A DNA stretch of 39,348 nt. Source: a virus. Below the pieces are notes generated by a model. The model was not told the DNA's origin. It searched no databases and saw only the letters and a program-made list of their open reading frames with translations. A program made the position numbers and the translations under genes. Below, piece after piece: positions 603 through 36,534 of this stretch; the stretch's first letter is position 1, and every line of letters begins with the position of its first letter. Where the stretch lies: the UHGV virus genome UHGV-0146801, one strand, 5' to 3'.

Positions 603-616
603 AACAAAAAACCCAT
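603..616. repeat. Left copy of 14-bp direct repeat AACAAAAAACCCAT (candidate prophage att core)
   Basis: Identical 14-mer at 36521..36534; lies between the host rcdA stop and phage int. Confidence 0.55.
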
Positions 617-690
617 TTATGTAAACGGGTTAATGAAAACAATAAGTTAGAGCAAAAACAATAAGTTGGGTTGGTGGTCAGTGGTGGTGA

Positions 691-1743
691 TTACGGGGTA
701 ATGCCAACCGCTGCCGCCACTTTGTCGCCACTTGGCAGCGTTGCCAGAGGATTGAAACGGAGCGCCGTTTCCAGATGATCCGGTGCCAGATGTGCGTAAC
801 GCATAGTCATTTTTATATCGTGGTGTCCGAGAATTTTTTGTAAGGCCAGAATGTTTCCACCCGACATCATGAAGTGCGCCGCAAACGTATGGCGCAGAAC
901 GTGTGTGAGTTGACCGCGAGGGAGCACGATAGACGTTTTTTCCATCACGGATAAAAATTGAAAATAGCAGTCTGTAAAGAAATTGAACCCATCAAGCGCC
1001 ATGATCTCTTCGTAAAGCTCTTTACTTATAGGGATGCTTCTGTTTTTCTTCCCCTTCGTTCTGACAAAGGTAATTCGGTATTTGGTCACCTGTGAGCGGG
1101 TAAGATTTACGGCTTCACGCCAGCGTGCGCCTGTGCTTAAGCATATCTTAACTACCAGTGCCAGAATTGGGTCCTGACGTTTGCAATCAGCCAGCAATTC
1201 AACAATCTGCTCATGGGTAAGCCATGCCATCTCTTTTTCTGCGATGGTGAATTTTCGCATGTTCTCCAGTGGGTTCGGATACGACCATTCGCCCAGACGG
1301 GATAGTTCGCTAAAAACACTACTTAGATAGCTTTGCTCCAGGTTAATGGTGACCGGGCTTGCTCCTTTCTTCCATTTCTCGCTGAAGTAGATCTCGCCTG
1401 TCAGGCGTTTATCTCGATAGTGGGCAAACATTTTAGAGGTGAGATCGGTTGCAAGAGGATTGCCCAGAGCGTCAACCATCAACAGCAATTTGTCATAGAC
1501 ATGCTGCCCAGCTGTCAGAGATTTACCATGTAGTTTGAACCATAGCTCAACCACGTCTTTCAGTGTTCGACGATCCACTGATTCACCCAGCCAGGGCTTT
1601 GCTTCGGTTTCTTCCATCGTGTGGCGCTCAAAAGCCAGAGCTTCGCCTTTGGTGGCGAATTGTTTACGCACCCGACGCCCACTACGTCCGGCGGGGTAAC
1701 ATTCGCAAAGCCATTTTCCTGTGGTGAGTTTTCGTACTGCCAT
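691..1743 (-). CDS. int: Tyrosine integrase, P2-type
   Basis: 350 aa; C-terminal catalytic region with HVLRHTFA...LGHHDIKMTMRYAHL (R..HxxR..Y signature); adjacent to att repeat. Confidence 0.9.
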   Translation of the reverse strand: MAVRKLTTGKWLCECYPAGRSGRRVRKQFATKGEALAFERHTMEETEAKPWLGESVDRRTLKDVVELWFKLHGKSLTAGQHVYDKLLLMVDALGNPLATDLTSKMFAHYRDKRLTGEIYFSEKWKKGASPVTINLEQSYLSSVFSELSRLGEWSYPNPLENMRKFTIAEKEMAWLTHEQIVELLADCKRQDPILALVVKICLSTGARWREAVNLTRSQVTKYRITFVRTKGKKNRSIPISKELYEEIMALDGFNFFTDCYFQFLSVMEKTSIVLPRGQLTHVLRHTFAAHFMMSGGNILALQKILGHHDIKMTMRYAHLAPDHLETALRFNPLATLPSGDKVAAAVGITP

Positions 1744-1829
1744 AATAAAGCCCTCATATCAGAGGGCTAAATTTAACTGTATGTTTGACCAGTGGTCAAT
1801 GTATGGTTTAGTTTATTCAAACAATGCTT

Positions 1830-3347
1830 TTAATCAAATGATGTGGCCAGTTCAATTAATTCAATGTAATTATGTAAGGCATAAAAAGATGTATTCAGTC
1901 CATTCTCTATAAGGGCTCCTTGCAAATACTTTATAGCTGTATCACCATCAATAGGGCCTTGTTGAGATTTAATCATTAGTGAATTTTGCCCATTGTTTTT
2001 TATACTTGATTTAAGTATTTTTATATTATTGATAAAATACAATGCAACATCTAAGTAATTTATTAATGTTAAACTTATTTTGGGCTCGATCTGTGAGATG
2101 AATAATCTACTGTTCGCCGTTGTATAGATATAATTGACACCTATTCTTTGCTGATTTGTATCAAGATTTAATTCAAGGATGGCTTGAGAAACACCTTTTA
2201 AATTGGAGCTTTGCTTTATCGAATCAGTGAAACGTTGTGCTGCATTTCTTCGACCAATTAGTCCATCTATAATTTGACGATCCTTATCATATATAATCAT
2301 TAGCGAAATTATAAAAATATAATCTACTTTCTTTTTGACTAAATCAGATTTAAGAATGTCTATTAACCTTTCAGTATTTCGGATTGAGTCTCTTAGATTT
2401 AACCCAAATGCTTCAAATACGTTGGAAATATTTATTGAAAAGTCTTCTAATGTTGCGGTTAGTGGGTATGTTTTTGATGTGATATTTTCAAACTCGGTAC
2501 CAATATAATCACCAACAACACCATTAATTAAATCTTTAAGTTCAGGTTGTTTTAAAGTAAATCTTCTATGAAAAAAACGGCCTAAATAGTCATTTGCGGA
2601 AAAATCATTACCGTAAACATTCTTGATTGAATGTTGTAATTGATCTGTGTCAGTAGCAATAATAAAGACAAAATTTTTAATATCGAATATATGTTTAACA
2701 ATCTCTAAAAGAGAAATTGCATAATCTGGCCTGCATCTGTCTAATTCATCTATAAAGATAAATATAGGACATGAAAAACTATTTTCATATGCCAACCTAG
2801 ACCATAACGTAAGTTCTTTTTTTAATACCTTAATGCTCTTCAGTTTTTCCTGGTGTTCCTTCAGCATTATTAATGAGGCTTCTTTGGCTATATCACCTAC
2901 GTTATCTACTCCTGCATAAGTCTTGATTAGGCCAGATATGATTTCAGGTAGAACACCTTTTGTAAAGCGTCCGATAGCATGGCCGCTTTGTATCAATCGA
3001 GCATCAAGTTTTCCTGCATATGTTTGCAATTGTTGTGACAAAGAAGAAAAAAGGGTTAAAAATGCATCATCAGAAAAGTCTTGCTTCCAGGCATCAATGT
3101 AAACGCATGGGTGTGCATCTTTTATTGAGTTATAAAATCTCTTTATGAAAAAACTTTTACCAGCTCCCCATTCTGCATTAAGGTTGATTACCGTGTTGTT
3201 CTTTTGCCCCTTTTCCTTAAGATAAAAATATAGATATTCTGCATAGTGTCTCCGATTAAGTTTGTCTTTGGAGAGAATTTCCTCTTCGTCGTCTAATATA
3301 AAGGTAGTTTCTTCATCCCAGTTCCAATTACAATCACCACATTTCAC
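1830..3347 (-). CDS. KAP-family P-loop NTPase (cargo, candidate defence gene)
   Basis: 505 aa; Walker A with KAP-type tryptophan NAEWGAGKSFF and Walker B IFIFIDELDRCRP (DELDRC motif); AT-rich coding sequence. Confidence 0.8.
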   Translation of the reverse strand: MKCGDCNWNWDEETTFILDDEEEILSKDKLNRRHYAEYLYFYLKEKGQKNNTVINLNAEWGAGKSFFIKRFYNSIKDAHPCVYIDAWKQDFSDDAFLTLFSSLSQQLQTYAGKLDARLIQSGHAIGRFTKGVLPEIISGLIKTYAGVDNVGDIAKEASLIMLKEHQEKLKSIKVLKKELTLWSRLAYENSFSCPIFIFIDELDRCRPDYAISLLEIVKHIFDIKNFVFIIATDTDQLQHSIKNVYGNDFSANDYLGRFFHRRFTLKQPELKDLINGVVGDYIGTEFENITSKTYPLTATLEDFSINISNVFEAFGLNLRDSIRNTERLIDILKSDLVKKKVDYIFIISLMIIYDKDRQIIDGLIGRRNAAQRFTDSIKQSSNLKGVSQAILELNLDTNQQRIGVNYIYTTANSRLFISQIEPKISLTLINYLDVALYFINNIKILKSSIKNNGQNSLMIKSQQGPIDGDTAIKYLQGALIENGLNTSFYALHNYIELIELATSFD

Positions 3348-3372
3348 TATGAAGTCTCCATGAAAAATTTAC

Positions 3373-4296
3373 TTAATGTAAACAACTTATAATAACTTTT
3401 GCAATAAACTCAATGTCTGTAAGCGAACATTCAAAAGAGTGATTTTTGGATGAAATATAAACTCGTCCTTTAGGTAGTCGAGTTATCATTCTAAATGAAT
3501 TCTCTCCATCAATATTTACTAGCCACTTACCATCATGTACATCTTTAAAACCCATTTCACATATTAATTCAGAGTCTTCGGTAGATACTACGAATGCATT
3601 TTTTAAATTGGAAGGTAGAAAACATGGGTCAAATAAATATGAGCCATCATTTATTAACTTGCCATTGATTAATACTTTTTTCACTAATGTTAAAGTATCT
3701 TTATTTTTTGCGTTTTTCATTTCTCCTGTACCAAATGAAATCCATTCAATAGAATGGCCCGTTTCTATTGCACACTGCAAAACCCAGTCTGCAGGAAAAA
3801 TGTCACGCATGTATCGTGTGGCTAATGTGCTTTTTGAAATACCTAGGTGATCAGCTAATGCTTGGCGCGTTTTGTAACCGTAAGCCTCGACAATTCGTTC
3901 TATTGTTGCCTTACCCCCTCGGTTAAAATTCATGAGTTTTTCATTATCGAACTTTATAGTGGGAATGTATACTTCATTGCAAAGGCCATTAACGGCATGT
4001 TTTTCAGAATATTGCTCTGATGAAGGAGCAGTATCTGAACCAAGAACTAACCATTCAATTGATGCTCCTGTTTCTATGGAACATATAACAACCCAATCTG
4101 CAGGAAAGGTATTACGTGCATATCTGTTGGCCATAGTACTTTGGGAAATACCTAGATGATTACATAATGCCTGTCGTGACTTGAAGCCATAGGCTAGGAG
4201 TATACGCTCAATAACTTTTTGCCCTCCACGATTCTGCATGACTATTGCTTTCAGATCGTTTTTGATATGGCTAAATTTTAATTTTTGAGTTGACAT
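3373..4296 (-). CDS. CI-repressor paralog with two tandem N-terminal HTH domains and a CI-like C-terminal domain
   Basis: 307 aa; two copies of the I(E)R(I/M)(L/V)xAYG(F/Y)K(S/T)RQAL..HLGISxST(M/L)A.RY.R..FPADWV block, and a C-terminus that aligns with the adjacent CI (LPKGRV vs LPGGRI, FLPSNLKNAFVV vs FLPSTLKNPFVI). Confidence 0.75.
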   Translation of the reverse strand: MSTQKLKFSHIKNDLKAIVMQNRGGQKVIERILLAYGFKSRQALCNHLGISQSTMANRYARNTFPADWVVICSIETGASIEWLVLGSDTAPSSEQYSEKHAVNGLCNEVYIPTIKFDNEKLMNFNRGGKATIERIVEAYGYKTRQALADHLGISKSTLATRYMRDIFPADWVLQCAIETGHSIEWISFGTGEMKNAKNKDTLTLVKKVLINGKLINDGSYLFDPCFLPSNLKNAFVVSTEDSELICEMGFKDVHDGKWLVNIDGENSFRMITRLPKGRVYISSKNHSFECSLTDIEFIAKVIISCLH

Positions 4297-4346
4297 ATTT
4301 TTTACACCACAACAAATGCTTTACCAAGCATAAAAACATTCCTATA

Positions 4347-4922
4347 TTACTCAAAGTACTTAACTGTTATGGTTATAATTTTTCCAATAATTTCGATTTC
4401 TTCTTTTTTACATTCGAAAGCCCTATTTCCACCTTCAACTAAGATTCTTCCACCAGGTAAACGAGTGATATCGCGGATTGTTACTTCGGCATCAATACTT
4501 ATTACCCATTTGCCGTCACGAATATCGTTAAACTCTTTATCGCAAATAAAAACGGAATTGTTATCGGTGATTACAAACGGATTTTTGAGCGTAGATGGTA
4601 GAAATTCTTTATCGAAAATATAAAAACCATCTTCCTGCAAGGTTCCATCAGATAATACATATTTAACGACTTCCATAGTATTTGTATTACCTGAAGTTTG
4701 CTTTGAACCATGTCCGGTCGTGAGCCAGTTAAGCGAGGCGCCCGTTTCAAGTGCGCACTGGATTACCCATTCAGCAGGGAATGAGTCACGCATATAGCGT
4801 GTGGCGAGAGTACTTTTAGAGATTCCTAAGTGATCGCACAACGCCTGTCGAGTCTTGAAGCCATATGCTTCTACCATGCGCTCTATAGCGCCTCGTCCGC
4901 CTTTCTCCAAATTCATGGTCAC
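4347..4922 (-). CDS. cI: Immunity repressor CI, phage 186 type
   Basis: 191 aa; N-terminal HTH (AYGFKTRQALCDHLGISKSTLATRY) and C-terminal oligomerisation-like domain; divergent from apl/cII as in 186. Confidence 0.85.
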   Translation of the reverse strand: MTMNLEKGGRGAIERMVEAYGFKTRQALCDHLGISKSTLATRYMRDSFPAEWVIQCALETGASLNWLTTGHGSKQTSGNTNTMEVVKYVLSDGTLQEDGFYIFDKEFLPSTLKNPFVITDNNSVFICDKEFNDIRDGKWVISIDAEVTIRDITRLPGGRILVEGGNRAFECKKEEIEIIGKIITITVKYFE

Positions 4923-4940
4923 TCCAAGTGAACTTTTGTC

Positions 4941-4969
4941 TTGACGATTTCATTATGCGATCGTATGTT
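4941..4969 (+). promoter_or_regulatory. Candidate lytic promoter pR (-35 TTGACG, 17-bp spacer, -10 TATGTT) in the cI-apl switch region
   Basis: Sigma70-like hexamers with canonical spacing read in the 119-bp cI/apl intergenic region. Confidence 0.4.
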
Positions 4970-5041
4970 TATGATGTTCACAAAATACAAACGATCCGTA
5001 TTCGTCCTGATTAATCAACATTAAACGAGGAATGTTGCATC

Positions 5042-5263
5042 ATGAAACATAACATTTCAATCACTCTTACCACGCCTCATGTGACTATTGAACGTTATAG
5101 CGAGCTGACAGGGCTATCCATCGATACTATCAATGACATGTTGGCTGATGGACGTCTTATCCGTCACCGTCTGCGGAAAGATAAAAAACGCGAAAAAGTG
5201 ATGATCAACATAGCAGCCATGACCGTTGATGCGCTTTCAGAATGCAATCTAAACCTTAATTAG
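5042..5263 (+). CDS. apl: Apl/Cox-like excisionase-repressor
   Basis: 73 aa small basic protein, first gene of the rightward operon facing cI; position as in phage 186. Confidence 0.6.
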
Positions 5264-5289
5264 TTCGATTCTGAAATACATCAGAGGCA

Positions 5290-5805
5290 TTGACCATGTT
5301 TGATTACCAAGTTTCCAAACATCCACATTTTGATGAAGCCTGTCGTGCATTCGCATTGCGCCACAACCTGGTGCAACTGGCAGAACGTGCTGGCATGAAT
5401 GTGCAGATTCTGCGGAACAAGCTGAACCCAGCTCAACCTCATTTATTAACCGCACCAGAAATCTGGCTGCTTACCGATCTGACTGAAGATTCAACGCTGA
5501 TAGATGGTTTTCTGGCACAGATTCACTGCCTGCCATGTGTACCGATTAATGAGGTAGCAAAAGAGAAACTGCCGCATTACGTCATGAGTGCAACCGCAGA
5601 GATCGGGCGTGTTGCTGCAGGTGCGGTATCTGGCGATGTAAAAACCAGTGCAGGTCGTCGTGATGCTATCAGCAGCATTAACTCTGTAACACGACTGATG
5701 GCGCTGGCTGCTGTTTCATTGCAGGCCCGTTTACAGGCTAACCCTGCGATGGTGAGTGCAGTTGATACCGTGACTGGCCTCGGTGCTTCATTCGGTTTGC
5801 TGTGA
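5290..5805 (+). CDS. cII: CII-like lysogeny establishment regulator (186 type)
   Basis: 171 aa; position immediately after apl; alpha-helical N-terminus, size matches 186 CII. Confidence 0.6.
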
Positions 5806-5812
5806 GGTACTT

Positions 5813-6204: not shown

Positions 6205-6226
6205 TTGCGTTTTGGGGATATGAATT

Positions 6227-6568: not shown

Positions 6569-6629
6569 CCAATTAATGAAAATCATGGCGTAAACCCGCC
6601 GGGCATCCCTTTATCTAAATTCAGGAGAA

Positions 6630-10812: not shown

Positions 10813-11001
10813 ATGCAGGACTATTTTTTGGAGTCTTTGAAGCTCCAGCGCATTGATTTTTTTCTTAAGCTTGTAGCGGCTAGTGAGTGTAGTGATGAAG
10901 AGAAGGGGCTGGCTCTGCAGTGGGTTTCTGAATTGACTGATGAACTCATGGCAAAAATCAGAAGCCACGAATACAACCGCTCAATGGATGTCATCAGCTG
11001 A
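10813..11001 (+). CDS. Small SOS-regulated protein, function unknown
   Basis: 62 aa ORF with AGGAGG RBS directly downstream of the LexA box. Confidence 0.5.
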   Translation: MQDYFLESLKLQRIDFFLKLVAASECSDEEKGLALQWVSELTDELMAKIRSHEYNRSMDVIS

Positions 11002-11011
11002 GGTGACTTTT

Positions 11012-11245
11012 ATGCGCATTGAAATAATGATCGATAAAGAGCAGAAGATTAGCCAGTCTACCCTGGACGCCCTTGAATCCGAGCTTTACCGCAATCTGCG
11101 CCCCCTGTATCCCAAAACGGTAATTCGCATTCGCAAAGGTAGCTCTAACGGTGTGGAACTAACCGGACTGCAACTGGATGAAGAAAGAAAACAAGTGATG
11201 AAAATTATGCAGAAGGTGTGGGAGGACGACAGCTGGCTGCATTAA
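11012..11245 (+). CDS. DinI-family protein (Tum-like antirepressor candidate)
   Basis: 77 aa, MRIEIMIDKEQKISQSTLDALESELYRNL resembles DinI/MsgA; position and LexA control parallel the phage 186 tum module. Confidence 0.7.
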   Translation: MRIEIMIDKEQKISQSTLDALESELYRNLRPLYPKTVIRIRKGSSNGVELTGLQLDEERKQVMKIMQKVWEDDSWLH

Positions 11246-12291: not shown

Positions 12292-13521
12292 ATGCTAGTT
12301 GCATTCAGTTTAGAAAATTACAAGAGCTTTCGCGAAAGACAGGTTCTTAGTTTTGCTTCCTCAATTGGGGATGAGCATCCTGAACATATCGTGACATTAG
12401 CGAATGGTTTAAGAGTAAACAGATTTGCCGCATTAATAGGCGGAAATGGTGTTGGTAAAACACAATTAATAAATGCTATTACTGAATTTGCAAATTCAAT
12501 TCATAGTGACACATTACACAAATTGCATATGCCTTTCCTTCTAAATAAGGAATGTCGTAACAAACCTACTTCCTATGAAGCGATACTGATTGATGAAGAG
12601 CAAAAAAACTTCGTCCGTTATGGTGTGTCAGTTTTAAATGAAGTTATTGTAGATGAGTATTTATACATTAGACCGATAAGAAAAAATGCAAGGGAACAAT
12701 GTATTTTTATTCGCAATGAAAATGGGTTGGTTTTCAAAAAGCCCGACTTAAAAAAATACGAGTCGTTGATTAATCCTGTCTTAAGAGAAAGTGGAGCTGT
12801 TGTAACTTTTGCAAAATCTTTAGAAATTGATGCTCTTGTTGAAACCCAACGCTGGGCATTAAAACAATTGCCTTATTACTCTGAAAAATTCAAAAATCCA
12901 AGTCTTAAATTTGTTGAAGGACAACTTAAGCGCCAGTTATCAGGTGAGGAAGGAAATGAAAAATTAAATGAGAGTGGTCAAAGAATTTTAAATACCTATA
13001 ATGAAATGGTTATTCAGTCGCCGCTGCATATAGATAAAGTTGAATTTGTAAGATTTGGCGAAGATAATGAGTATAAATTTGTTTATCTCATAAAAAATGA
13101 TGATGGTGATTTTACTAGAATAGGCCCTGACCGTAGGGATGAATTTTTTTCCCAAGGCACACTAAATGTTTTAACATTTTTAGCAATATTGATTTGGGCT
13201 AGTGAATATGATTTTACACTTTATGTGGATGAAATAGATTCATCTATTCACTATTCTTTGGCAAGTGCACTAATCAAAAAAATATTTGATAAAACCTGCC
13301 GTAAAAATGGTGTGCAGTTTATTATGTCTACACATAATATTCCTTTATTAGATGATGTGTTTAGAAGAGATGAGCTTAATATTATAGTCAAGGATTCATC
13401 TAAAGCGTCGATAATAACTAATGCTACGGTATTTTCTGTAAGGAAAGATGCTAAAGTGTCTGCCAAATATTTACGTGGCGAATTTGGATTAGTTCCAGCT
13501 TTTCTTGATATAAAAAACTAA
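12292..13521 (+). CDS. ABC/OLD-type P-loop ATPase (AAA_15/21-like)
   Basis: 409 aa; Walker A GGNGVGKT, signature-like FSQGT, Walker B/D-loop LYVDEIDSSIH, H-loop MSTHN; AT-rich. Confidence 0.8.
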   Translation: MLVAFSLENYKSFRERQVLSFASSIGDEHPEHIVTLANGLRVNRFAALIGGNGVGKTQLINAITEFANSIHSDTLHKLHMPFLLNKECRNKPTSYEAILIDEEQKNFVRYGVSVLNEVIVDEYLYIRPIRKNAREQCIFIRNENGLVFKKPDLKKYESLINPVLRESGAVVTFAKSLEIDALVETQRWALKQLPYYSEKFKNPSLKFVEGQLKRQLSGEEGNEKLNESGQRILNTYNEMVIQSPLHIDKVEFVRFGEDNEYKFVYLIKNDDGDFTRIGPDRRDEFFSQGTLNVLTFLAILIWASEYDFTLYVDEIDSSIHYSLASALIKKIFDKTCRKNGVQFIMSTHNIPLLDDVFRRDELNIIVKDSSKASIITNATVFSVRKDAKVSAKYLRGEFGLVPAFLDIKN

Positions 13522-13534: not shown

Positions 13535-14614
13535 ATGACTAGCTTTGCTTATGATGGTGATATTTTGACACCTAATAATTTAGAAATTACATCCTTCGCC
13601 ACATTGAAATCAAAAATAAGAGAGCGAAGAGTATGTGTTTTTCTCGGAGCAGGATTTTCTAAAGCCTGGGATGACAAATACCCATTGAGTAATGAAGTCT
13701 TTTCCATCTCTGAAGACGAAGCATTAGAAAATATTGATGAGTATGGTTTTTTTTCTTTGTTCGACAGTCTTAAATTTAAATGGGCGGATGCTAATGCAGG
13801 TTTAGATGACAAAGCTAATGTTTTCAAGAGTTTTAAATATGCATTGGATGTTTATAAGCGATATCCAAGTTTATTGCCGTCGTATCTTGATAGGCATACG
13901 CTTGAGTTGTTTGAGGCACAAGTAAAACTATATGTAAAAAATAAGTTTGCAAAAAAAATACCGGCAAATGATTTAAAGCTAAGTCAAACTGCAAAATTTG
14001 GGCAGAATAAAAGGAATATTATTTCTTTCTTTAAGAGTTTACAGGAAGCTTCAGCACTGGATGTAGTCACAACAAACTACGATATAGTTATTGATAAAGT
14101 GCTACATCATGCATTCCCTGAACGTTCAGTTAATCGGGGTTTTCCTGTGCATCATAATAATATATTAGTGTGTCCTCAGCCTAAAGGTATAGGTTTGTAT
14201 AAGCTTAATGGAGGATTTGAGGTTGTTGCTGCAAGGGATGGTTTTAAAATAGATTATGATTCATTATTAAACGCAAAAGTTGTTCCAAATATTATCTTGC
14301 CTTCAAATGAACAAGACTATGGGGATAAATACTTTAAGTCAGCTTTTGTGAAATCCTCTACCCAGTTGAGACAAGCAGATCTGTTGATCTTTATAGGTTA
14401 TTCTTTCCCAAAGGAAGACTTTATTATTAATTTTCTTTTGAAGACTTTTCTGGATGGCGATAGTACTGAAAAAGAGACTGTTATTATTGGGCGAAATAAA
14501 TCTAGTGCTATTGAGATACACCAGCGTGCGTGTGAAGTTTTTAAAGAACTAAATGATAAATCTGCACTGTATTATTTCGGTGGTAGTTTTTCTGATTTAT
14601 GTAAACAATGTTAG
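13535..14614 (+). CDS. SIR2-like (DHS-like NAD-binding fold) protein, candidate NADase effector
   Basis: 359 aa; Rossmann motif VCVFLGAGFS, TTNYD motif (VVTTNYDIVID), C-terminal LLIFIGYSFPKED; 13 bp downstream of the ATPase. Confidence 0.75.
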   Translation: MTSFAYDGDILTPNNLEITSFATLKSKIRERRVCVFLGAGFSKAWDDKYPLSNEVFSISEDEALENIDEYGFFSLFDSLKFKWADANAGLDDKANVFKSFKYALDVYKRYPSLLPSYLDRHTLELFEAQVKLYVKNKFAKKIPANDLKLSQTAKFGQNKRNIISFFKSLQEASALDVVTTNYDIVIDKVLHHAFPERSVNRGFPVHHNNILVCPQPKGIGLYKLNGGFEVVAARDGFKIDYDSLLNAKVVPNIILPSNEQDYGDKYFKSAFVKSSTQLRQADLLIFIGYSFPKEDFIINFLLKTFLDGDSTEKETVIIGRNKSSAIEIHQRACEVFKELNDKSALYYFGGSFSDLCKQC

Positions 14615-25505: not shown

Positions 25506-27046
25506 GCACAAAATTTTATACCCTGCTGACGGATATTGGCGCGGCGAAACTTGCCAGCGCCGCCGCGCTCGGTGTGCCTTTAAAAATTACCCATATGGCG
25601 GTAGGCGATGGCGGCGGAACATTGCCAACGCCGGACGCAGAGCAGACAGCATTAGTAAATGAGAAACGCCGGGCTGCGCTGAATATGCTGTACATCGACC
25701 CGCAGAACAGCAGCCAGATTATTGCCGAACAGGTGATCCCTGAAAACGAGGGCGGTTGGTGGATACGTGAAGTGGGCTTGTTTGATGAGTCCGGGGCATT
25801 GATTGCCGTGGGCAACTGCCCGGAAAGCTATAAGCCGCAACTGGCTGAAGGTAGCGGGCGCACTCAGACCGTGCGCATGGTGCTGATTACCAGCAGCACG
25901 GACAATATCACCCTGAAAATCGACCCTGCCGTCGTGCTGGCAACCCGCAAGTATGTGGATGACAAGGTACTGGAGCTGAAGGTGTTCGTGGATGATAAGA
26001 TGGCAAAACATCATGCCGCACCGGACCCGCATTCACAGTATGCACCCAAAGAAAGCCCAACATTGACCGGAACACCCAAAGCGCCAACGCCAGCGGAGGG
26101 GAATAACACCACGCAGATTGCGACCACCGCGTTTGTTCAGGCGGCACTGATGGCCCTTATTAATGGTGCGCCAGCCACACTGGATACGCTGAAAGAAATT
26201 GCCGCTGCCATTAATAATGACCCGAAATTCAGTACCACCATTAACAATGCGCTGGCACTGAAAGCGCCGCTGTTAAGTCCGGCACTCACCGGAACGCCAA
26301 CAGCCCCCACTGCCGCACAGTCGGTTAACAATACACAGATTGCCACCACGGCTTTTGTGAAATCGGCAATTGCGGCAATGGTGGGGTCTGCACCTGCTGC
26401 ACTGGATACACTGAATGAACTGGCTGCGGCGCTGGGGAATGACCCGAACTTTGCCACGACAATGCTTAATGCGCTGGCAGGTAAACAACCGCTGGACAAT
26501 ACGCTGACTAATTTGAGTGGAAAGGATGTAGCTGGTCTTCTCGCATACCTTGGTTTGGGAGAAGGCTCTGCATTACCTGTTGGTGTGCCTGTTCCATGGC
26601 CTTCAGCCACACCGCCAACAGGCTGGCTGAAATGCAACGGTGCGGCATTTTCTGCTGAAGAATACCCGGAACTGGCAAAGGCTTACCCGACAAATAAATT
26701 GCCTGATTTACGTGGTGAGTTCATTCGTGGCTGGGATGATGAACGTGGTGTGGATAGTGGGCGAACTCTGCTTTCAGCGCAAGGAGATGCTATTCGAAAC
26801 ATTACTGGCGGTTTTGGTCAGTTGCGCGTAAACAGCGAAATTAATGCAATTGTCGATGTTCAAAGTGTGAGTGGGGCTTTTTACGGAGGTACCTCAGTCC
26901 GGAATAACATCAATGTATCTATGACATACGCTAATGACCGAAAAATCCGACAAGATGTTCACTTCTCGGCGGCAAATGTTGTTCCAACAGCAAATGAAAA
27001 TCGTCCACGTAACATCGCCTTTAATTATATTGTGAGGGCCGCATGA
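25502..27046 (+). CDS. H: Tail fibre protein, P2 gpH-like, with a switchable C-terminal segment
   Basis: 514 aa; repeated PTLTGTPKAPTPA/ALTGTPTAPTAA fibre motifs; C-terminal part lies inside the candidate invertible segment. Confidence 0.85.
   Translation: MSTKFYTLLTDIGAAKLASAAALGVPLKITHMAVGDGGGTLPTPDAEQTALVNEKRRAALNMLYIDPQNSSQIIAEQVIPENEGGWWIREVGLFDESGALIAVGNCPESYKPQLAEGSGRTQTVRMVLITSSTDNITLKIDPAVVLATRKYVDDKVLELKVFVDDKMAKHHAAPDPHSQYAPKESPTLTGTPKAPTPAEGNNTTQIATTAFVQAALMALINGAPATLDTLKEIAAAINNDPKFSTTINNALALKAPLLSPALTGTPTAPTAAQSVNNTQIATTAFVKSAIAAMVGSAPAALDTLNELAAALGNDPNFATTMLNALAGKQPLDNTLTNLSGKDVAGLLAYLGLGEGSALPVGVPVPWPSATPPTGWLKCNGAAFSAEEYPELAKAYPTNKLPDLRGEFIRGWDDERGVDSGRTLLSAQGDAIRNITGGFGQLRVNSEINAIVDVQSVSGAFYGGTSVRNNINVSMTYANDRKIRQDVHFSAANVVPTANENRPRNIAFNYIVRAA
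26550..26564. repeat. Left arm of 15-bp inverted repeat TTGGTTTGGGAGAAG (candidate invertase crossover site inside H)
   Basis: Perfect reverse complement at 28506..28520; encodes GLGE in the same reading frame in both copies. Confidence 0.5.
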
Positions 27047-27648
27047 TGAATAAAGCCGTATTGAATAGTGAACTCATTGCCATAAAAGCGGGAGACATTA
27101 TCATTTATAATTATGATGGTGAAACGCGGGAATATATTTCTACATCAACTGAATATCTCGCTGTCGGCGTCGGTATCCCGGCATGTTCCTGTTTGGATGC
27201 ACCAGGTACACATAAAGCTGGTTATGCAATCTGTCGCTCTGTAGATTTAAATTCATGGGAATATGTGCCAGACCATCGCGGTGAAGTTGTCTATAGTACC
27301 GAAACGGGAGATACCAAAGAAATCGCAGTTCCGGGTGATTATCCTGAAAATACAACCACTATCGCCCCGTTAACGCCATACGATGAATGGGATGGTGAGA
27401 AATGGGTGACCGATACTGAAGCACAGCATAGCGCCGCAGTAGGCGCGGCAGAAGCACAGCGTCAGTCACTGATTGATACTGCAATGGCTTCCATTAGTCT
27501 GATTCAACTGAAATTGCAGGCCGGGCGGAAGCTGACGCAGACAGAAAACACCCGACTTAACGCTGTGCTGGATTACATTGACGCGGTGACGGCAACAGAT
27601 ACCAGCACCGCGCCGGACGTCATCTGGCCTGAACTGCCGGAGGCGTAG
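27043..27648 (+). CDS. G: Tail fibre assembly chaperone, P2 gpG-like
   Basis: 201 aa; conserved C-terminal LDYIDAVTATDTSTAPDVIWPELP. Confidence 0.8.
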   Translation: MMNKAVLNSELIAIKAGDIIIYNYDGETREYISTSTEYLAVGVGIPACSCLDAPGTHKAGYAICRSVDLNSWEYVPDHRGEVVYSTETGDTKEIAVPGDYPENTTTIAPLTPYDEWDGEKWVTDTEAQHSAAVGAAEAQRQSLIDTAMASISLIQLKLQAGRKLTQTENTRLNAVLDYIDAVTATDTSTAPDVIWPELPEA

Positions 27649-28063
27649 GCCATTCAATATCTGGCGCACCGGAAGTATCAACCAGTTCCAGTGCGTCCAG
27701 ATAATCCAGCCATAAATTATATTGTTCCAGCTCGTCACCTTTCAGACGACCAATAGCAGCTTTGCCAGGCCACTGATGGGTATTGATGTAGGTATTGACT
27801 TCTGAAACCAAAGATATTTTTTTCATTTCAGCCGTCAACACCTCATCCTCTTTTGAAGGTGGTGGGGAATTAATCCATACTGGCCGTCCTGAACTGTCAG
27901 CGCCAATTTCTTTCCCTTCTGGATGCAGACCAAGAAATTGCTCATATGTTTCTCTGGTAATTTCAATAACATCATCAGGAAGCGTTCCCGCACCCTCATA
28001 TTCTGGAAACAATTCTTGCAGATAAAAACTTTTACTTCCGGGTGAAAAGAATACTGAGTTCAT
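27620..28063 (-). CDS. Alternative tail fibre assembly chaperone (G')
   Basis: 147 aa on the opposite strand with the same Tfa C-terminal motif (LDYLDALELVDTSGAPDIEWPTPP). Confidence 0.75.
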   Translation of the reverse strand: MNSVFFSPGSKSFYLQELFPEYEGAGTLPDDVIEITRETYEQFLGLHPEGKEIGADSSGRPVWINSPPPSKEDEVLTAEMKKISLVSEVNTYINTHQWPGKAAIGRLKGDELEQYNLWLDYLDALELVDTSGAPDIEWPTPPAVQAR

Positions 28064-28065
28064 TA

Positions 28066-28560
28066 TTACCGTCCAATGATTAACGCTGAGACGCTGGTAT
28101 CTGAAGGAAAGGCTGCATTCAGTGGTTTGTCGACTTTGAACACAATCGTATTATTCCCCCTGACAGCGGCAAAAGAACAAACCGCAGTCGCGTATGAACC
28201 TGTAATATTACTGGATACACCACCATAAGCTGTTGTTGATACCAGAGGGATAACGCCCAGCACCTTATTAGGAAATACAAAGGGTAATGTGGCTGTGGCA
28301 ATATAAGACTTATTAGAACCTGTGATGGCATAAGCATTATCAGTCATTCCATTCATCGCCACTGGGCCGCTTATACTTACAGTAACCATCTGAATGATTA
28401 GCCCGTCAGGTTGACGAATCACAAAATTTCCATTGCCACCAGTAACCGTCCAGAAAGACATATCAGGGATTTGGTTTTCCCCGTTGCCCACATTCCGTTT
28501 TGCCGCTTCTCCCAAACCAACGTTTAAGAAAATGCAGATGTAACGGCTAACTGGCATCAT
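28066..28560 (-). CDS. Alternative tail fibre C-terminal (receptor-binding) segment (Hv')
   Basis: 164 aa ORF in reverse orientation sharing the in-frame GLGE crossover region with H. Confidence 0.65.
   Translation of the reverse strand: MMPVSRYICIFLNVGLGEAAKRNVGNGENQIPDMSFWTVTGGNGNFVIRQPDGLIIQMVTVSISGPVAMNGMTDNAYAITGSNKSYIATATLPFVFPNKVLGVIPLVSTTAYGGVSSNITGSYATAVCSFAAVRGNNTIVFKVDKPLNAAFPSDTSVSALIIGR
28506..28520. repeat. Right arm of 15-bp inverted repeat (CTTCTCCCAAACCAA on + strand)
   Basis: Reverse complement of 26550..26564. Confidence 0.5.
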
Positions 28561-28581
28561 CTCCGGTTTTTATTCAGGGGG

Positions 28582-29154
28582 ATGATCATGCTTATTGGCT
28601 ATGTACGTGTGTCAACAAATGACCAGAACACCGATTTGCAACGTAATGCACTGAACTGCGCGGGATGTGAGCGGATTTTTGAGGATAAAATCAGTGGCAC
28701 TAAGTCCGACAGACCGGGGCTGAAAAAACTGCTCAGGACACTATCGGCAGGAGACACGCTGGTTGTCTGGAAGCTGGACAGGTTGGGGCGCAGTATGCGG
28801 CATCTTGTTACGCTGATAGAAGAGTTACGCCAGCGTGGCGTGAATTTCCGAAGCCTGACTGACAGTATTGATACCAGCACCCCAATGGGCCGTTTCTTTT
28901 TTCATGTCATGGGGGCTCTGGCTGAAATGGAACGCGAACTGATAGTTGAACGTACCAGGGCGGGGCTGGCTGCAGCTCGTGTTAAAGGCAGAGTAGGTGG
29001 ACGCCGTCCTAAGTTGACCAGCGAACAGTGGGCACAGATTGGGCGTTTACTCGAGGCCGGAGAATCAAGACAGCGTATTGCACTGATTTTTGATGTAGGC
29101 GTTTCTACCATTTATAGAAAATTTCCGGCCAATAAGAGCATTGAATCCCCCTGA
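28582..29154 (+). CDS. Serine recombinase / DNA invertase (Hin/Gin/Cin/Pin family)
   Basis: N-terminal MLIGYVRVSTNDQNTDLQ with catalytic-serine context and C-terminal HTH; start may be ATG 28588. Confidence 0.9.
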   Translation: MIMLIGYVRVSTNDQNTDLQRNALNCAGCERIFEDKISGTKSDRPGLKKLLRTLSAGDTLVVWKLDRLGRSMRHLVTLIEELRQRGVNFRSLTDSIDTSTPMGRFFFHVMGALAEMERELIVERTRAGLAAARVKGRVGGRRPKLTSEQWAQIGRLLEAGESRQRIALIFDVGVSTIYRKFPANKSIESP

Positions 29155-29202
29155 ATCAGCATTATTTTGATTATCCCTGCAAGTAGACAAATACCGTCAT
29201 TT

Positions 29203-30469: not shown

Positions 30470-30478
30470 GGGGACAAC

Positions 30479-30994: not shown

Positions 30995-31048
30995 TATATC
31001 TGAACGGCGCGGGATACCGCGCCAGAACCCAATTTACAGGACAGCAAA

Positions 31049-31351: not shown

Positions 31352-31485
31352 CGGTTGACGATCTGGTGGCAGATATCGCCACCATTTTTCACTGGCCGCC
31401 ATCCGTTACTGACGTTATGCCGCTGACCGAAGTGCTGGAATGGCGGTATAAAGCGATTCAGAGATGCGGGGCCAACGATGAGTGA
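31305..31485 (+). other. Programmed -1 frameshift site (TTTTTTG at 31306..31312) and E' extension giving an E+E' fusion
   Basis: The -1 frame is open from 31312 to the TGA at 31483..31485 and encodes a plausible peptide (...IATIFHWPPSVTDVMPLTEVLEWRYKAIQRCGANDE). Confidence 0.65.
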
Positions 31486-34400
31486 TAACAACCTGCACCT
31501 GCAGGTCATTCTTAATGCGGTTGACAAACTCACCCGCCCATTCCGTGCTGCACAGGCCAGTTCGAAAGAGCTGGCTGGCGCAATCAGAAACTCCCGTGAT
31601 GCATTAAAGCAACTCAATCAGGCGGGTAACAGCCTGGAAAAATTTCGCAAGCTGCAGGCTGATAACAAGAAGTTAGGCGACAGGCTGAACTATGCCAGAC
31701 AGAAGGCTAATTTGCTTAGCTCTGAGCTGGAGGCGATGGAGCAACCATCACAAAGGCATCTTGTGGCTTTAGGTCGGCAAACGCTGGCAGTCCAACGCCT
31801 GGAAGAACAACAAAAATATTTGCAGAAGCAAACGGCGCTTGTGCGTGCAGAACTGTACCGGGCGGGAATTTCTGCGAAAGATGATGCGGGAGCAACTGCC
31901 CGTTTAGCCCGTGAAACATCACGTTATAACCAGGAACTGTCGAAACAGGAGGCGCGGCTGAAGCGACTGGGGGAAGCTCAGCGCAGGATGAATGCAGCGC
32001 GTGCCAGTTATGCCCGTTCGCTGGAGGTGCGTGATCGTATTGCAGGAGCCGGAGCCACCACCACGGCTGCAGGGCTGGCAATGGGAACACCAGTGATGGC
32101 GGCAGTAAAAAGCTATACCAGCATGGAAGATGCCATGAAAGGTGTGGCAAAGCAGGTCAATGGTCTGCGTGACGATAATGGCAACCGCACTGCACGTTTT
32201 TATGAAATGCAGGATGCCATCAAGGCTGCCAGCGAACAGTTGCCGATGGAAAACGGTGCGGTGGACTTCGCTGCACTGGTTGAAGGTGGTGCGCGCATGA
32301 ACGTCGCAAACCCTGACGACAGCTGGGAAGACCAGAAACGTGACCTGCTGGCCTTCGCCAGTACGGCAGCAAAGGCGGCAACAGCCTTTGAGCTGCCAGC
32401 GGATGAACTGTCAGAAAGTCTGGGGAAAATCGCCCAGCTCTACAAAATACCTACCCGCAATATTGAACAGCTCGGCGATGCGCTGAACTATCTGGATGAT
32501 AACGCCATGTCGAAAGGGGCGGACATCATTGATGTCATGCAACGTCTGGGCGGTGTGGCTGACCGTCTGGATTATCGTAAAGCGGCGGCACTGGGTTCCA
32601 CCTTTCTGACACTGGGCGCTGCGCCGGAGGTTGCAGCCAGTGCAGCAAACGCGATGGTGCGTGAATTGTCCATTGCCACCATGCAAAGCAAGAGTTTCTT
32701 TGAAGGGATGAATCTGCTGAAACTTAATCCTGAAGTGATTGAAAAGCAGATGACGAAGGATGCGATGGGAACTATCCAGCGTGTGCTGGAGAAGGTGAAC
32801 GCACTGCCGCAGGACAAGCGTCTGTCTGCCATGACCATGTTGTTTGGTAAAGAGTTTGGTGATGACGCGGCGAAACTGGCAAACAACCTGCCGGAACTGC
32901 AGCGCCAGCTAAAACTGACAGCGGGCAATGATGCGCTCGGTTCTATGCAGAAAGAATCCGACATCAACAAAGACTCACTTTCTGCTCAGTGGTTGCTGGT
33001 CAAAACCGGAGCGCAGAACACCTTTAGCAGCCTGGGCGAAACGCTGCGCCAGCCGCTGATGGATATTCTGTACACGGTGAAAAGCATCACGGGGGCGTTG
33101 CGCCGCTGGGTGGAAGCTAACCCGGAACTGACAGGCACACTGATGAAAGTAGCGGTTGTTGTGGCTGCGGTTACCGTAGGCCTCGGCACCTTAGCGGTGG
33201 CGCTGGCTGCAGTGCTGGGGCCGCTGGCAGTGATCCGTCTGGGATTCTCTGTGCTGGGTATCAAAACGTTACCTTCCGTTACGGCAGCAGTAACACGAAC
33301 CAGCAGCGCGTTGTCGTGGCTGGCTGGCGCACCACTGGCACTGCTGCGACGCGGGCTTGCTTCATCGGGCAACGCCGCAGGTTTACTCACTGCGCCGTTG
33401 TCGTCTTTGCGTCGCACGGCATCACTGACGGGGAATGTCCTGAAAACTGTAGCAGGTGCGCCGGTTGCACTATTGCGGTCTGGATTATCCGCTTTACGTG
33501 CTGTTGCTGTGATGTTTATGAATCCTCTGGCGGTACTGCGCGGTGGACTGACCGCCGCAGGTACGGTGCTGCGAGTACTGGCATCCGGTCCACTGGCGAT
33601 GCTGCGCGTTGCCCTGTATGCCATATCTGGTCTGTTAGGTGCTCTGCTCAGTCCGATAGGTCTTGTGGTTACTGCACTGGCAGGCGTGGCGCTGGTTGTC
33701 TGGAAATACTGGCAACCCATCACCGCATTTCTCGGTGGTGTGGTGGAAGGATTCAAAGCGGCGGCAGGTCCCATCAGTGCAGCATTCGAACCACTTAAGC
33801 CTGTGTTTCAGTGGATTGGCGACAAAGTGCAGGCGTTGTGGGGCTGGTTTACTGATCTGCTGACGCCTGTTAAGTCAACCTCTGCCGGACTGCAGAGCGC
33901 AGCGGCAATGGGGCGACGATTCGGGGAGGCTCTGGCGGAAGGGCTGAATATGGTCATGCATCCGCTGGACTCCCTGAAATCCGGCGTTTCCTGGTTGCTG
34001 GAGAAACTTGGCATTGTCAGTAAAGAGGCCGCAAAGGCAAAACTGCCGGAAAGCGTGACGCGTCAGCAACCTGCGACGGTGAATGCAGACGGTAAAGTGA
34101 TGATGACATCGGGTGGTTTTCCATCATGGGGATATGGCTTTGCGGGGATGTATGACAGCGGCGGCTATATCCCGCGCGGGCAGTTTGGCATCGTCGGTGA
34201 AAACGGGCCGGAAATTGTTAACGGCCCGGCAAATGTGACCAGCCGGAGAAATACAGCTGCACTGGCTGCCGTTGTTGCCGGAATGATGGGCGTTGCTGCC
34301 GCGCCAGCAGAGCTTCCACCGTTGCACCCTTTGGCACTTCCCGCGAAAGGCGGCGAAGCAATTGTGAGTCGCGCAGCCACTGTGCCGCCCGTTTACAGGA

Positions 34401-34555
34401 TTGAGGCACCGACGCAGATCATCATCCAGACGCAGCCAGGACAAAGTGCGCAGGATATTGCGCGGGAGGTGGCCCGCCAGCTTGATGAACGTGAACGCAG
34501 GCTGAAGGCAAAAGCCAGGAGTAACTACAGAGATCAGGGGGGATACGACGCATGA
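31478..34555 (+). CDS. T: Tail tape measure protein, P2 gpT-like
   Basis: 1025 aa; coiled-coil N-terminus, hydrophobic Ala/Leu-rich central region; position after E/E'. Confidence 0.9.
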   Translation: MSDNNLHLQVILNAVDKLTRPFRAAQASSKELAGAIRNSRDALKQLNQAGNSLEKFRKLQADNKKLGDRLNYARQKANLLSSELEAMEQPSQRHLVALGRQTLAVQRLEEQQKYLQKQTALVRAELYRAGISAKDDAGATARLARETSRYNQELSKQEARLKRLGEAQRRMNAARASYARSLEVRDRIAGAGATTTAAGLAMGTPVMAAVKSYTSMEDAMKGVAKQVNGLRDDNGNRTARFYEMQDAIKAASEQLPMENGAVDFAALVEGGARMNVANPDDSWEDQKRDLLAFASTAAKAATAFELPADELSESLGKIAQLYKIPTRNIEQLGDALNYLDDNAMSKGADIIDVMQRLGGVADRLDYRKAAALGSTFLTLGAAPEVAASAANAMVRELSIATMQSKSFFEGMNLLKLNPEVIEKQMTKDAMGTIQRVLEKVNALPQDKRLSAMTMLFGKEFGDDAAKLANNLPELQRQLKLTAGNDALGSMQKESDINKDSLSAQWLLVKTGAQNTFSSLGETLRQPLMDILYTVKSITGALRRWVEANPELTGTLMKVAVVVAAVTVGLGTLAVALAAVLGPLAVIRLGFSVLGIKTLPSVTAAVTRTSSALSWLAGAPLALLRRGLASSGNAAGLLTAPLSSLRRTASLTGNVLKTVAGAPVALLRSGLSALRAVAVMFMNPLAVLRGGLTAAGTVLRVLASGPLAMLRVALYAISGLLGALLSPIGLVVTALAGVALVVWKYWQPITAFLGGVVEGFKAAAGPISAAFEPLKPVFQWIGDKVQALWGWFTDLLTPVKSTSAGLQSAAAMGRRFGEALAEGLNMVMHPLDSLKSGVSWLLEKLGIVSKEAAKAKLPESVTRQQPATVNADGKVMMTSGGFPSWGYGFAGMYDSGGYIPRGQFGIVGENGPEIVNGPANVTSRRNTAALAAVVAGMMGVAAAPAELPPLHPLALPAKGGEAIVSRAATVPPVYRIEAPTQIIIQTQPGQSAQDIAREVARQLDERERRLKAKARSNYRDQGGYDA

Positions 34556-35037
34556 TGATGGTGCTGGGATTGTACGTGTTTATGCTGCGCACCGTGCCGT
34601 ATCAGGAACTGCAGTATCAGCGCAGCTGGCGACATGCGGCTAACAGTCGGGTAAATCGTCGTCCATCCACGCAGTTTCTGGGACCGGACAACGACATGCT
34701 GACGCTTTCTGGTGTTCTTATGCCGGAGATAACAGGCGGCAGGCTGTCATTGCTGGCACTGGAGCAGATGGCAGAGCAGGGGAAAGCATGGCCCCTGATT
34801 GAAGGCAGCGGCACGATTTACGGCATGTATGTGATTGAGGGACTGAATCAGACCAAAACGGAGTTTTTCCGCGACGGTATGCCGCGCCGGATTGAGTTCA
34901 CCCTGTCGCTCAAACGGGTGGATGAATCTCTGTCCGATATGTTTGGTGATCTCAGTGCGCAGCTGAATAATCTGCAGGACATGGCAACATCTGCCTTAAG
35001 TGATATCAGTAAAACGGTGGGAGGGCTGCTGTCATGA
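34552..35037 (+). CDS. U: Tail protein, P2 gpU-like
   Basis: 161 aa; position. Confidence 0.8.
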   Translation: MMMVLGLYVFMLRTVPYQELQYQRSWRHAANSRVNRRPSTQFLGPDNDMLTLSGVLMPEITGGRLSLLALEQMAEQGKAWPLIEGSGTIYGMYVIEGLNQTKTEFFRDGMPRRIEFTLSLKRVDESLSDMFGDLSAQLNNLQDMATSALSDISKTVGGLLS

Positions 35038-36134
35038 ATTTCAGCTCTGAACTGCTTAACAAAGGCAACAAAACTCCGGCATTCAGTATCAGTATTGAGG
35101 GCAGGGATATCACCACTGTGCTGGATAACCGTCTGATGAGTCTGACGCTGACGGACAATCGGGGCTTTGAAGCGGACCAGCTTGATCTGGAGCTGGACGA
35201 CGCCGACGGAAAAATCGTGCTGCCGCGCCGTGGTGCGGTCATTACGCTGGCGCTGGGCTGGAAGGGGCAGCCGCTTTTCCCGAAAGGGGCATTCACGGTG
35301 GACGAGATTGAACACACTGGCGCACCGGACCGCCTGACTATTCGGGCGCGAAGTGCTGATTTTCGTGAAACGCTGAATACCCGCCGTGAAAAGTCGTGGC
35401 ACAAGACCACCGTCGGGGAAGTAGTGAAGGAAATAGCCGTACGTCACAAGCTGAAGATGGCACTGGGTAAAGACCTGTCGGATAAGCCTGTGGAGCATAT
35501 AGACCAGACTAATGAGAGTGACGGCAGTTTTCTGATGCGGCTGGCGCGCCAGTACGGTGCTATTGCGTCGGTGAAAAATGGCAATCTGTTATTCATCCGG
35601 CAGGGACAGGGTAAAAGTGCTAGCGGTAAACCACTGCCGGTGATCACTATCACACGTAAGGACGGCGACAGTCACCGCTTTACCCTGGCAGATCGCGGAG
35701 CCTACACGGGCGTAATTGCCAGCTGGTTGCATACCCGCGAACCTGCGAAGAAAGAAAGCACCACGGTGAAGCGTAAGCGCAGAACTAAGAAGCAGAAGAA
35801 AGAGCCGGAAGCGAAGCAGGGCGATTACCTGGTGGGTACGGATGAAAACGTGCTGGTACTTAATCGCACTTATGCCAACCGGAGCAACGCCGAACGAGCG
35901 GCGAAAATGCAGTGGGAACGCCTGCAACGCGGCGTTGCGTCATTTTCTCTACAACTGGCAGAAGGGCGGGCAGATCTCTACACGGAAATGCCTGTGAAGG
36001 TCAGTGGTTTTAAACAGCCGATAGATGATGCGGAATGGACCATTACGACTCTGACACATACCGTCAGCCCGGATAATGGTTTTACGACCAGTCTGGAGCT
36101 TGAAGTGAGGATTGATGATTTCGAAATGGAATGA
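35034..36134 (+). CDS. D: Tail/baseplate hub protein, P2 gpD-like
   Basis: 366 aa; position. Confidence 0.85.
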   Translation: MNFSSELLNKGNKTPAFSISIEGRDITTVLDNRLMSLTLTDNRGFEADQLDLELDDADGKIVLPRRGAVITLALGWKGQPLFPKGAFTVDEIEHTGAPDRLTIRARSADFRETLNTRREKSWHKTTVGEVVKEIAVRHKLKMALGKDLSDKPVEHIDQTNESDGSFLMRLARQYGAIASVKNGNLLFIRQGQGKSASGKPLPVITITRKDGDSHRFTLADRGAYTGVIASWLHTREPAKKESTTVKRKRRTKKQKKEPEAKQGDYLVGTDENVLVLNRTYANRSNAERAAKMQWERLQRGVASFSLQLAEGRADLYTEMPVKVSGFKQPIDDAEWTITTLTHTVSPDNGFTTSLELEVRIDDFEME

Positions 36135-36224
36135 TTCTTCGCAATGGAGAACTTTTAAGTTTGCAAAATGGAATAATGCGGTATCATTATTGTGAATTTA
36201 GCAAAAATGGGGAGAACTCGAAAA

Positions 36225-36443
36225 ATGATGATTTGCCCACTGTGTGGAAGTGCCGCCCATACTCGCAGCAGTTTTCAGGTATCTTCATTGACCAAAGAGC
36301 GTTACAACCAGTGCCAGAATATTAACTGCAGCCATACTTTTGTAACCCATGAAACTTTTGTTCGTTCGATTGCAACGCCAAAAGAGTCAAATCCGGTTCA
36401 GCCGCATCCAATGAAATCAGGACAGGGGGCGCTCTCTCTTTGA
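36225..36443 (+). CDS. ogr: Late gene transcriptional activator Ogr (zinc finger)
   Basis: MMICPLCGSAAHTRSS...ERYNQCQNINCSHTF matches recalled P2 Ogr CxxC...CxxxxC pattern; 72 aa. Confidence 0.85.
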   Translation: MMICPLCGSAAHTRSSFQVSSLTKERYNQCQNINCSHTFVTHETFVRSIATPKESNPVQPHPMKSGQGALSL

Positions 36444-36520
36444 CTCTGCCGCCAATTTGTCGCCATCATTAAAAAACAGTGCGTCTAACATCATGATTTT
36501 AAAAAGCATAAATTTCAGGC

Positions 36521-36534
36521 AACAAAAAACCCAT
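36521..36534. repeat. Right copy of 14-bp direct repeat AACAAAAAACCCAT (candidate att core), inside the ybjL terminator hairpin region
   Basis: Identical to 603..616; on the minus strand the flanking stem CCCATCAACC/GGTTGATGGG plus T6 forms a terminator-like structure downstream of ybjL. Confidence 0.55.

Follow-up and report, generated by a model that had tools for sequence, protein, structure and literature searches.

Evidence that a 14-bp direct repeat between rcdA and ybjL is the core shared by attL and attR in a P2-like prophage

The virus genome UHGV-0146801 was analyzed as a single stretch of 39,348 nt, referred to below as the window. At its left end lies rcdA, the gene of a TetR-type regulator (coding sequence 50–586, plus strand), which was identified from the PGAP annotation of a 99.7%-identical flank in NZ_CP025859 and from that of Escherichia coli K-12 AB1157. 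At its right end lies ybjL, encoding an aspartate:alanine antiporter (36679–38364, minus strand), which was identified from open reading frames (ORFs) and by comparison with K-12. Between these host flanks, a P2-like gene set recognized from ORFs, Pfam, and PHROG defined a prophage body at 617–36520, in which a tyrosine integrase of the 186/HP1 type (350 amino acids; 691–1743, minus strand; assigned by Pfam and as a PHROG integrase) adjoins rcdA, and ogr, the late-gene activator (36225–36443, plus strand; Pfam Ogr_Delta), is the last phage gene before ybjL. Sequence search and alignment located the 14-mer AACAAAAAACCCAT exactly twice in the window, at 603–616 and at 36521–36534, both on the plus strand, and there was no third site in the 39,348 nt even when one mismatch was allowed. 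The bases bordering the two copies were unlike (t and c before, t and c after), so that the exact repeat was 14 bp long, as had been claimed in the original prediction from this DNA. The left copy started 17 nt past the rcdA stop codon and ended 74 nt short of the end of the integrase ORF; the claims that it lies just after the rcdA stop and that an integrase adjoins it were thus both borne out. The distance from core to core was 35,918 bp.

The repeat could be a chance match, with the true prophage ends lying elsewhere, since exact direct repeats of this size are common in the window (14 pairs of at least 14 bp, against 3.1 ± 2.0 in first-order Markov random sequences) and the 14-mer is A-rich and of low complexity. 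However, only 2 of 2000 randomizations yielded a 14-mer common to both of the short intergenic regions; it is the placement of the 14-mer, not its length, that is improbable. When positions 1–700 of the window were used as the query, matches were obtained in 5,423 of 5,426 complete E. coli genomes, and in genomes without an integrase at the locus the left-flank match ended at 616. In E. coli K-12 AB1157, rcdA and ybjL were neighbors, as the original prediction had stated, and the intergenic sequence (...gggtagtagataagttttagatAACAAAAAACCCATcaaccttgaaccgaaatggcggggttgatggg...) was that of window positions 560–616 joined without a gap to the sequence starting at 36535, so that the 14-mer was present once. 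This single-copy junction is the predicted attachment site attB, for which the restored order was predicted to be TTTTAGAT-AACAAAAAACCCAT-CAACCTTG; alignment of the flanks to prophage-free E. coli, the check that had been proposed, placed the junction at 616/36535, where it was expected. The homology to thousands of empty-site genomes therefore stops exactly at 616 and resumes leaving one 14-mer copy, and this break is the decisive evidence for the boundary. With the same 14-mer also linking ogr to int in free phage genomes, we consider a chance match to have almost no probability.

The phage attachment site, attP, was then compared with unintegrated relatives. Fifteen phage records matched the int gene and the DNA of the P' arm with 95.6–98.2% identity. 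In KP12, a Klebsiella phage, gpD and ogr are followed by the integrase gene, with ...cataaatttcagacAACAAAAAACCCATttatgtaaacgggttaatg... in between. An attP construct in which window positions 35034–36534 were joined to 617–1743 (2,628 bp, in the order gpD-ogr-core-int) aligned without gaps over 2,627 bp, with 96.7–96.9% identity, to two independent contigs, phage KP12 and a metagenomic viral contig of IMG/VR (L038). The predicted order of attP was TTTCAGGC-AACAAAAAACCCAT-TTATGTAAACGGG. In the six sequences aligned, the common core occurred once in attB (K-12), once in the free-phage attP between ogr and int (KP12 and L038), and twice in the lysogen window. Since the free phage already has the 14-mer, the repeat results from conservative site-specific recombination and not from duplication of the target site. 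Transposition likewise leaves direct repeats around an inserted element, and the 14 bp could on that ground be taken for a target-site duplication made by a transposase-type insertion instead of a shared att core; but, besides the 14-mer held by the unintegrated attP, the element encodes no transposase, its recombination proteins being a tyrosine integrase and a Cox-like excisionase, and the same insertion site is used in approximately 1,100 genomes. We regard such a duplication as extremely improbable. Among the 5,426 complete E. coli genomes, an attR-type (ogr-ybjL) junction was found in 1,105 and an attL-type (rcdA-int) junction in 1,123, and the rcdA-ybjL site was occupied in approximately 21%.

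The best explanation of the two 14-mers is that attL and attR of a complete-looking, 35.9-kb P2-like (Peduoviridae) prophage with a 186/HP1-type integrase share them as their common core, a reading to which we assign a probability of about 0.95. No evidence contradicts the attL/attR assignment, and attB, attP, attL, and attR all agree with the original proposal that the phage integrated in the shared rcdA-ybjL terminator region with the repeat as the att core. The alignments show that attP, lying between ogr and int, recombined with attB in the rcdA-ybjL intergenic region by conservative site-specific recombination. By analogy with 186, HP1, and lambda, the integrase would bind tandem TGYCGCCA sites on both arms, helped by IHF-like bends, and would bind core sites around the 14-mer before exchanging strands inside AACAAAAAACCCAT; the Cox-like protein would, by the same kind of analogy, direct excision. 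Some points weigh against this explanation. A 14-bp repeat, of which the window holds 14 such pairs, is by itself statistically weak; the functional core is, from the sequence comparisons described below, probably longer than 14 bp; and we infer from related systems the cleavage positions, the core-binding sites of Int, and the parts played by IHF and Cox.

The position of the core relative to transcription terminators was examined at both junctions. On the minus strand, the core reads ATGGGUUUUUUGUU (ATGGGTTTTTTGTT), which represents the last stem bases and the U-tract of an intrinsic terminator. Folding and an inverted-repeat search located the intrinsic terminator hairpin of ybjL at 36530–36566 (minus strand), with a 10-bp stem, CCCATCAACC/GGTTGATGGG, formed by arms at 36530–36539 and 36557–36566; the RNA fold was −24.1 kcal/mol (z −3.4), and the U-tract was the complement of 36521–36529. 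The right copy of the core gives this hairpin the complement of its U-tract (AACAAAAAA) and its first five stem bases (CCCAT). The hairpin contains the end of the right copy, and the predicted overlap of the repeat with the ybjL terminator was thus found. A simple terminator scan at attR found no hairpin, the ybjL loop being longer than the 8-nt limit of the scanner. Downstream of int, the terminator scan detected the hairpin AACCCGTTTA-CA-TAAATGGGTT (AACCCGTTTACATAAATGGGTT) at 610–631 (minus strand), with an RNA fold of −9 kcal/mol (z −2.6) and a U-tract that was the complement of core bases 603–609. Host and phage each have a terminator ending in the same 14 nt, and the core closes the ybjL hairpin in attB and the int hairpin in attP. 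Exchange inside the shared 14 nt therefore leaves the ybjL terminator whole at attR and the int terminator whole at attL, and no gene is disrupted.

At the right junction, the alignment of empty-site genomes began at 36508 instead of 36521, because attP and attB share an imperfect similarity of 27 bp. The extended core region of attL (590–616, plus strand) consists of ATAAGTTTTAGAT followed by AACAAAAAACCCAT and is identical to the K-12 attB, its 13 left bases being the host (K-12-type) allele, and that of attR (36508–36534, plus strand) consists of ATAAATTTCAGGC followed by AACAAAAAACCCAT, its 13 left bases being, by alignment, the phage allele. The two regions matched at 23 of 27 positions, with 4 mismatches in the 13 bases left of the 14-mer (590–602 compared with 36508–36520), and right of the 14-mer the sequences diverged at once. 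The mismatches were at −9, −5, −2, and −1, and at all four attL had the host base and attR the phage base, which places strand exchange in this lysogen within 603–616, the left copy of the core.

In the attB of E. coli, three alleles were seen left of the core: a K-12 type (ATAAGTTTTAGAT), an HS type (ATAAATTTTAGAT), and an O157/ST131 type (ATAAATTTCAGGC), the last of which equals the phage P arm sequence and so gives an identity of 27 bp. All three were seen both empty and occupied (the loci compared include L063, 400–426, and L006, 1000–1026). The empty site in strain 140 and in sampled O157:H7 genomes was ATAAATTTCAGGCAACAAAAAACCCAT, a 27/27 match to the present attP, and from alignment coordinates and IMG/VR attL sequences we infer the same 27-mer, with a variant rcdA tail, in ST131-type genomes such as EC958. 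Alleles were counted in evenly spaced samples of 60 BLAST rows, giving counts that are approximate and confounded by phylogeny: one such sample held approximately 18 rows of the CAGGC allele, 8 of the HS type, and 19 of the K-12 type, together with 13 attR junctions of lysogens. Lysogens made up approximately 10 of 36 TAGAT-allele rows and 2–3 of 20 CAGGC-allele rows, a rough and phylogeny-confounded comparison suggesting that lysogeny is no less frequent in TAGAT hosts than in CAGGC hosts. The hairpin and the A-run were conserved in a comparison covering more than 100 Enterobacteriaceae species, and CAGGC was the commonest left sequence, both in true attB and beside phage arms; TAGAT is thus probably an allele derived in E. 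coli. Variants inside the 14-mer were AAT for AAC in Buttiauxella-type attB and CCCAC in locus L064.

These alleles bear on whether the true recombination core is the 27-bp ATAAATTTCAGGCAACAAAAAACCCAT, with the 14-mer only its perfect part and with an exchange that could lie further left, an alternative for which we see even odds. It is favored by the agreement of attP and attB at 23 of 27 positions in the present lysogen and at all 27 in the O157:H7-type and ST131-type empty sites, by the 19-bp repeat common to the annotated attL and attR of Klebsiella phage 4LV2017, and by the wide occurrence of CAGGC directly left of the 14-mer in attP and attB of Enterobacteriaceae. However, the host-type bases of attL and the phage-type bases of attR at all four mismatches put the exchange to their right, in the 14-mer, and the extra identity is evidently dispensable in view of the lysogens among the TAGAT-allele rows. 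The recognition site is likely to extend beyond the 14-mer, but a displaced crossover is unlikely. The original prediction had allowed for a core that was longer or shifted; of these, the longer similarity was found (19–27 bp) and the shift was not, exchange being confined to 603–616. The sequence comparisons support the view that the 14 bp are the exact identity left in the K-12-type host allele, inside a longer recognition region of 19–27 bp. This phage family thus retains only 14 bp of exact identity with K-12-type hosts, which, as the sampled rows suggest, are lysogenized no less often than hosts that offer 27 bp. We also considered, as an unlikely idea, that the attB polymorphism between TTTTAGAT (K-12/HS-type) and TTTCAGGC (O157/ST131-type, equal to the phage P arm) is non-neutral and that phage family and host are co-evolving at a core-binding half-site. 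If this were true, the polymorphism could have been left behind by phage traffic, with phage bases copied into the host whenever the prophage is excised or lost at a point left of the mismatches, or it could be a host variant that alters the efficiency of integration.

The ybjL-terminator attB was also scanned beyond this prophage. In a scan of contigs (L065–L184), the ybjL terminator/attB (AAAAAACCCATCAACCTTG ... GGCGGGGTTGATGGGCTCCACA) was kept in more than 100 Enterobacteriaceae species, and in 60 of the 120 loci scanned neither an rcdA nor an ogr homologue was found within 2 kb to the left of attB, which suggests that many other integrated elements use this site. In E. coli 23CRST011 (L064, 380–420), another element directly adjoins ybjL where the present prophage does; a serine acetyltransferase gene is nearby, the arm terminates in GGGGATTTAGAT, and the 14-mer has a single-nucleotide polymorphism (AACAAAAAACCCAC).

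Arm-type integrase sites were found on both sides of the core. The P' arm had a tandem pair, TGCCGCCACTT/TGTCGCCACTT, with 11-bp spacing inside the 3' end of int (712–733, plus strand), recognized by its match to the 186-type consensus, and the P arm had a tandem pair, TGCCGCCAATT/TGTCGCCATCA, with 11-bp spacing (36447–36468, plus strand), recognized by the same motif and spacing as in the P' pair. Both arms thus had a tandem TGYCGCCA pair, which fits the 186-type arm consensus tgccGCCActt (Nilsson and Haggard-Ljungquist 2011, PMC3448106). P2-type arm sites (tgTGGaCa, TGTGGACA-like) were found in neither arm, and the only nearby TGTGGACA-like match, at 36577–36584, was in host DNA and at chance frequency. 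An att system of the P2 sensu stricto/WPhi type was ruled out, as the arms are without tgTGGaCa and the integrase is only approximately 38% identical to WPhi Int. In the P' arm (637–668, plus strand), two direct repeats of AACAATAAGTT, at 638–648 and 657–667, were each one mismatch from the IHF consensus and are candidate IHF or Cox binding sites; matches of the AACAATAAGTT type numbered 5 against 0.73 expected, and these two were the exact ones. An IHF-like site, AATCATGATGTTA, with one mismatch from the consensus, was located between the P arm sites and the core (36486–36498, minus strand). The reconstructed attP contained three sites one mismatch from WATCAANNNNTTR, against 0.34 in shuffles, as consensus matches only, and these three IHF-like sites were located between the arm sites and the core. 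From such consensus matches, the IHF-like sites and the AACAATAAGTT repeats may have the roles proposed above.

From its gene content, the element appears to be a complete P2-like (Peduoviridae) prophage of 35.9 kb with a 186/HP1-type integrase. The P2-like gene set consisted of int, CI, cox, cII, a Dam methylase, the gpA replication protein, a DinI/Tum-like gene (10940–11245), portal, terminase, a P2-family capsid, tail fiber, gpD, and ogr. The DinI/Tum-like gene hints at an SOS response of the 186 type. Klebsiella Peduoviridae phages matched 95% of the late region with 95.8% identity. The integrase ORF matched Pfam PF24624 Int_N (E 3e-32) and PF00589 Phage_integrase (E 7e-22). Its amino acid sequence showed 100% identity with that of vB_EcoM-813R9 and 99.4% with that of Klebsiella phage Kp4876-1, and 55, 49, and approximately 38% identity with the Int proteins of SopEPhi, HP1, and WPhi, respectively, and these last three values assign it to the 186/HP1 type. 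The CI-type immunity repressor was encoded at 4347–4922 (minus strand; Pfam Phage_CI_repr and Phage_CI_C), and a Cox/Apl-like excisionase and repressor, a recombination directionality factor, at 5042–5263 (plus strand; PHROG 575 'Cox-like excisionase and repressor', E 9e-30).

The window was annotated from its own ORFs. NZ_CP025859 was dropped as an annotation source; although it gave the best attL match, it carries a degraded, IS66-interrupted relative with different cargo. In this relative (L008, E. coli 504239), which occupies the same site, an element of the IS66 family splits the portal gene, and a deletion extends from the capsid gene to gpD. In the window, the interval between int and CI contained two genes, at 1830–3347 and 3373–4296 (both minus strand). 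This cargo comprised a KAP-family P-loop NTPase of 505 amino acids, which matched the PADLOC candidate defense family PDC-S20 (E 7e-78), and a CI-like protein of 307 amino acids with two CI helix-turn-helix (HTH) domains, which adjoins the ordinary CI of 191 amino acids. In related prophages, HEPN plus GmrSD genes or a 'chromosome segregation ATPase' occupied this position, so that the int-cI interval seems to be a slot for variable cargo. An AbiL-like/AAA_21 ATPase (12292–13521, plus strand; PADLOC AbiLi, E 2e-51), followed by a SIR2-like protein (13535–14614, plus strand), was encoded between gpA and the portal gene. This interval is what we take to be the place of the tin and old genes in the P2 gene order. 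P2-like phages have been reported with such hotspots of anti-phage systems (PMC9122126). The region 26538–29154 was an invertible tail-fiber host-range switch, in which 27-nt inverted repeats (26538–26564 and 28506–28532) flank alternative genes for the tail-fiber C terminus and assembly on the opposite strand, with a serine invertase (Resolvase plus HTH_7) at 28582–29154.

The rcdA-ybjL site is a published and very common integration site, and the present finding is correct, ordinary, and already known. PhiECO1 of E. coli HS was listed at 916812–948276, and PhiECO2 (ATCC 8739), PhiECO3 (CFT073), and PhiSEN1 were given the same integration site (Table 1 of Nilsson and Haggard-Ljungquist 2011, PMC3448106). 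The PhiECO1 interval is flanked by rcdA and ybjL in the HS genome, and its left coordinate, 916812, coincides with the initial A of AACAAAAAACCCAT. NC-MV of NC101 has been described as located 'between ybjL and rcdA'. In the Phollow preprint (2024, PMC11195241), the HS prophage is the 'P2-like' phage, and primers with TAAATTTTAGATAACAAAAAACCCATCAACCTTGAACCGAAATG were used to delete it and rebuild attB, the resulting strain being intended as a recipient for de novo lysogenization. A 2026 paper on the diversity of P2-like viruses had nothing about att sites. The practical value of the present analysis is a clean annotation of the exact prophage ends, attL, and attR, from which attB can be rebuilt for curing or re-lysogenizing strains, with E. 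coli HS as a precedent; for site-specific recombination, it holds nothing conceptually new.

Among known systems, PhiECO1 of HS was compared directly and shares the rcdA-ybjL site and the 14-mer at both attL and attR, and prophages of the PhiECO1 type also share the 186-type CI/Cox switch and arm sites. HS differs in its attB allele (ATAAATTTTAGAT, one base off that of the present host), in other cargo genes, and in its attL (L006, 1080–1500), in which a 45-nt remnant of the int 3' end with both arm sites is followed by a small extra gene and then int; a moron seems to have been inserted there without loss of the arm sites close to the core. In the Klebsiella phages 4LV2017 (KY271398, Elveevirus) and KP12 (OM835953), the DNA of int and the P' arm was 95.6–97.4% identical to that of the present phage, attB is in the Klebsiella counterpart of the ybjL terminator, and the attP of KP12 is intact. 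The annotated attL and attR of 4LV2017 are 20 and 19 bp, respectively, and their shared 19-bp repeat consists of CAGGC and the 14-mer because the Klebsiella attB keeps CAGGC, whereas the attP of KP12 has CAGAC. With coliphage 186 and Haemophilus phage HP1, the present phage shares the integrase clade (49% amino acid identity with HP1 Int), the arm consensus tgccGCCActt, regulators of the CI, Cox/Apl, and cII types, and a DinI/Tum-like gene. Phages 186 and HP1 integrate in the 3' ends of tRNA genes, where their long cores rebuild the tRNA (PMC3448106). In contrast, the present phage targets the intergenic terminator of a protein gene and has a short core. With P2, whose core is approximately 27 bp long, and WPhi, it shares an attP between ogr and int, an intergenic attB, and an imperfect core of approximately 27 bp, but it differs from them in its Int, only approximately 38% identical, in its arms without tgTGGaCa, and in the locus of its attB.

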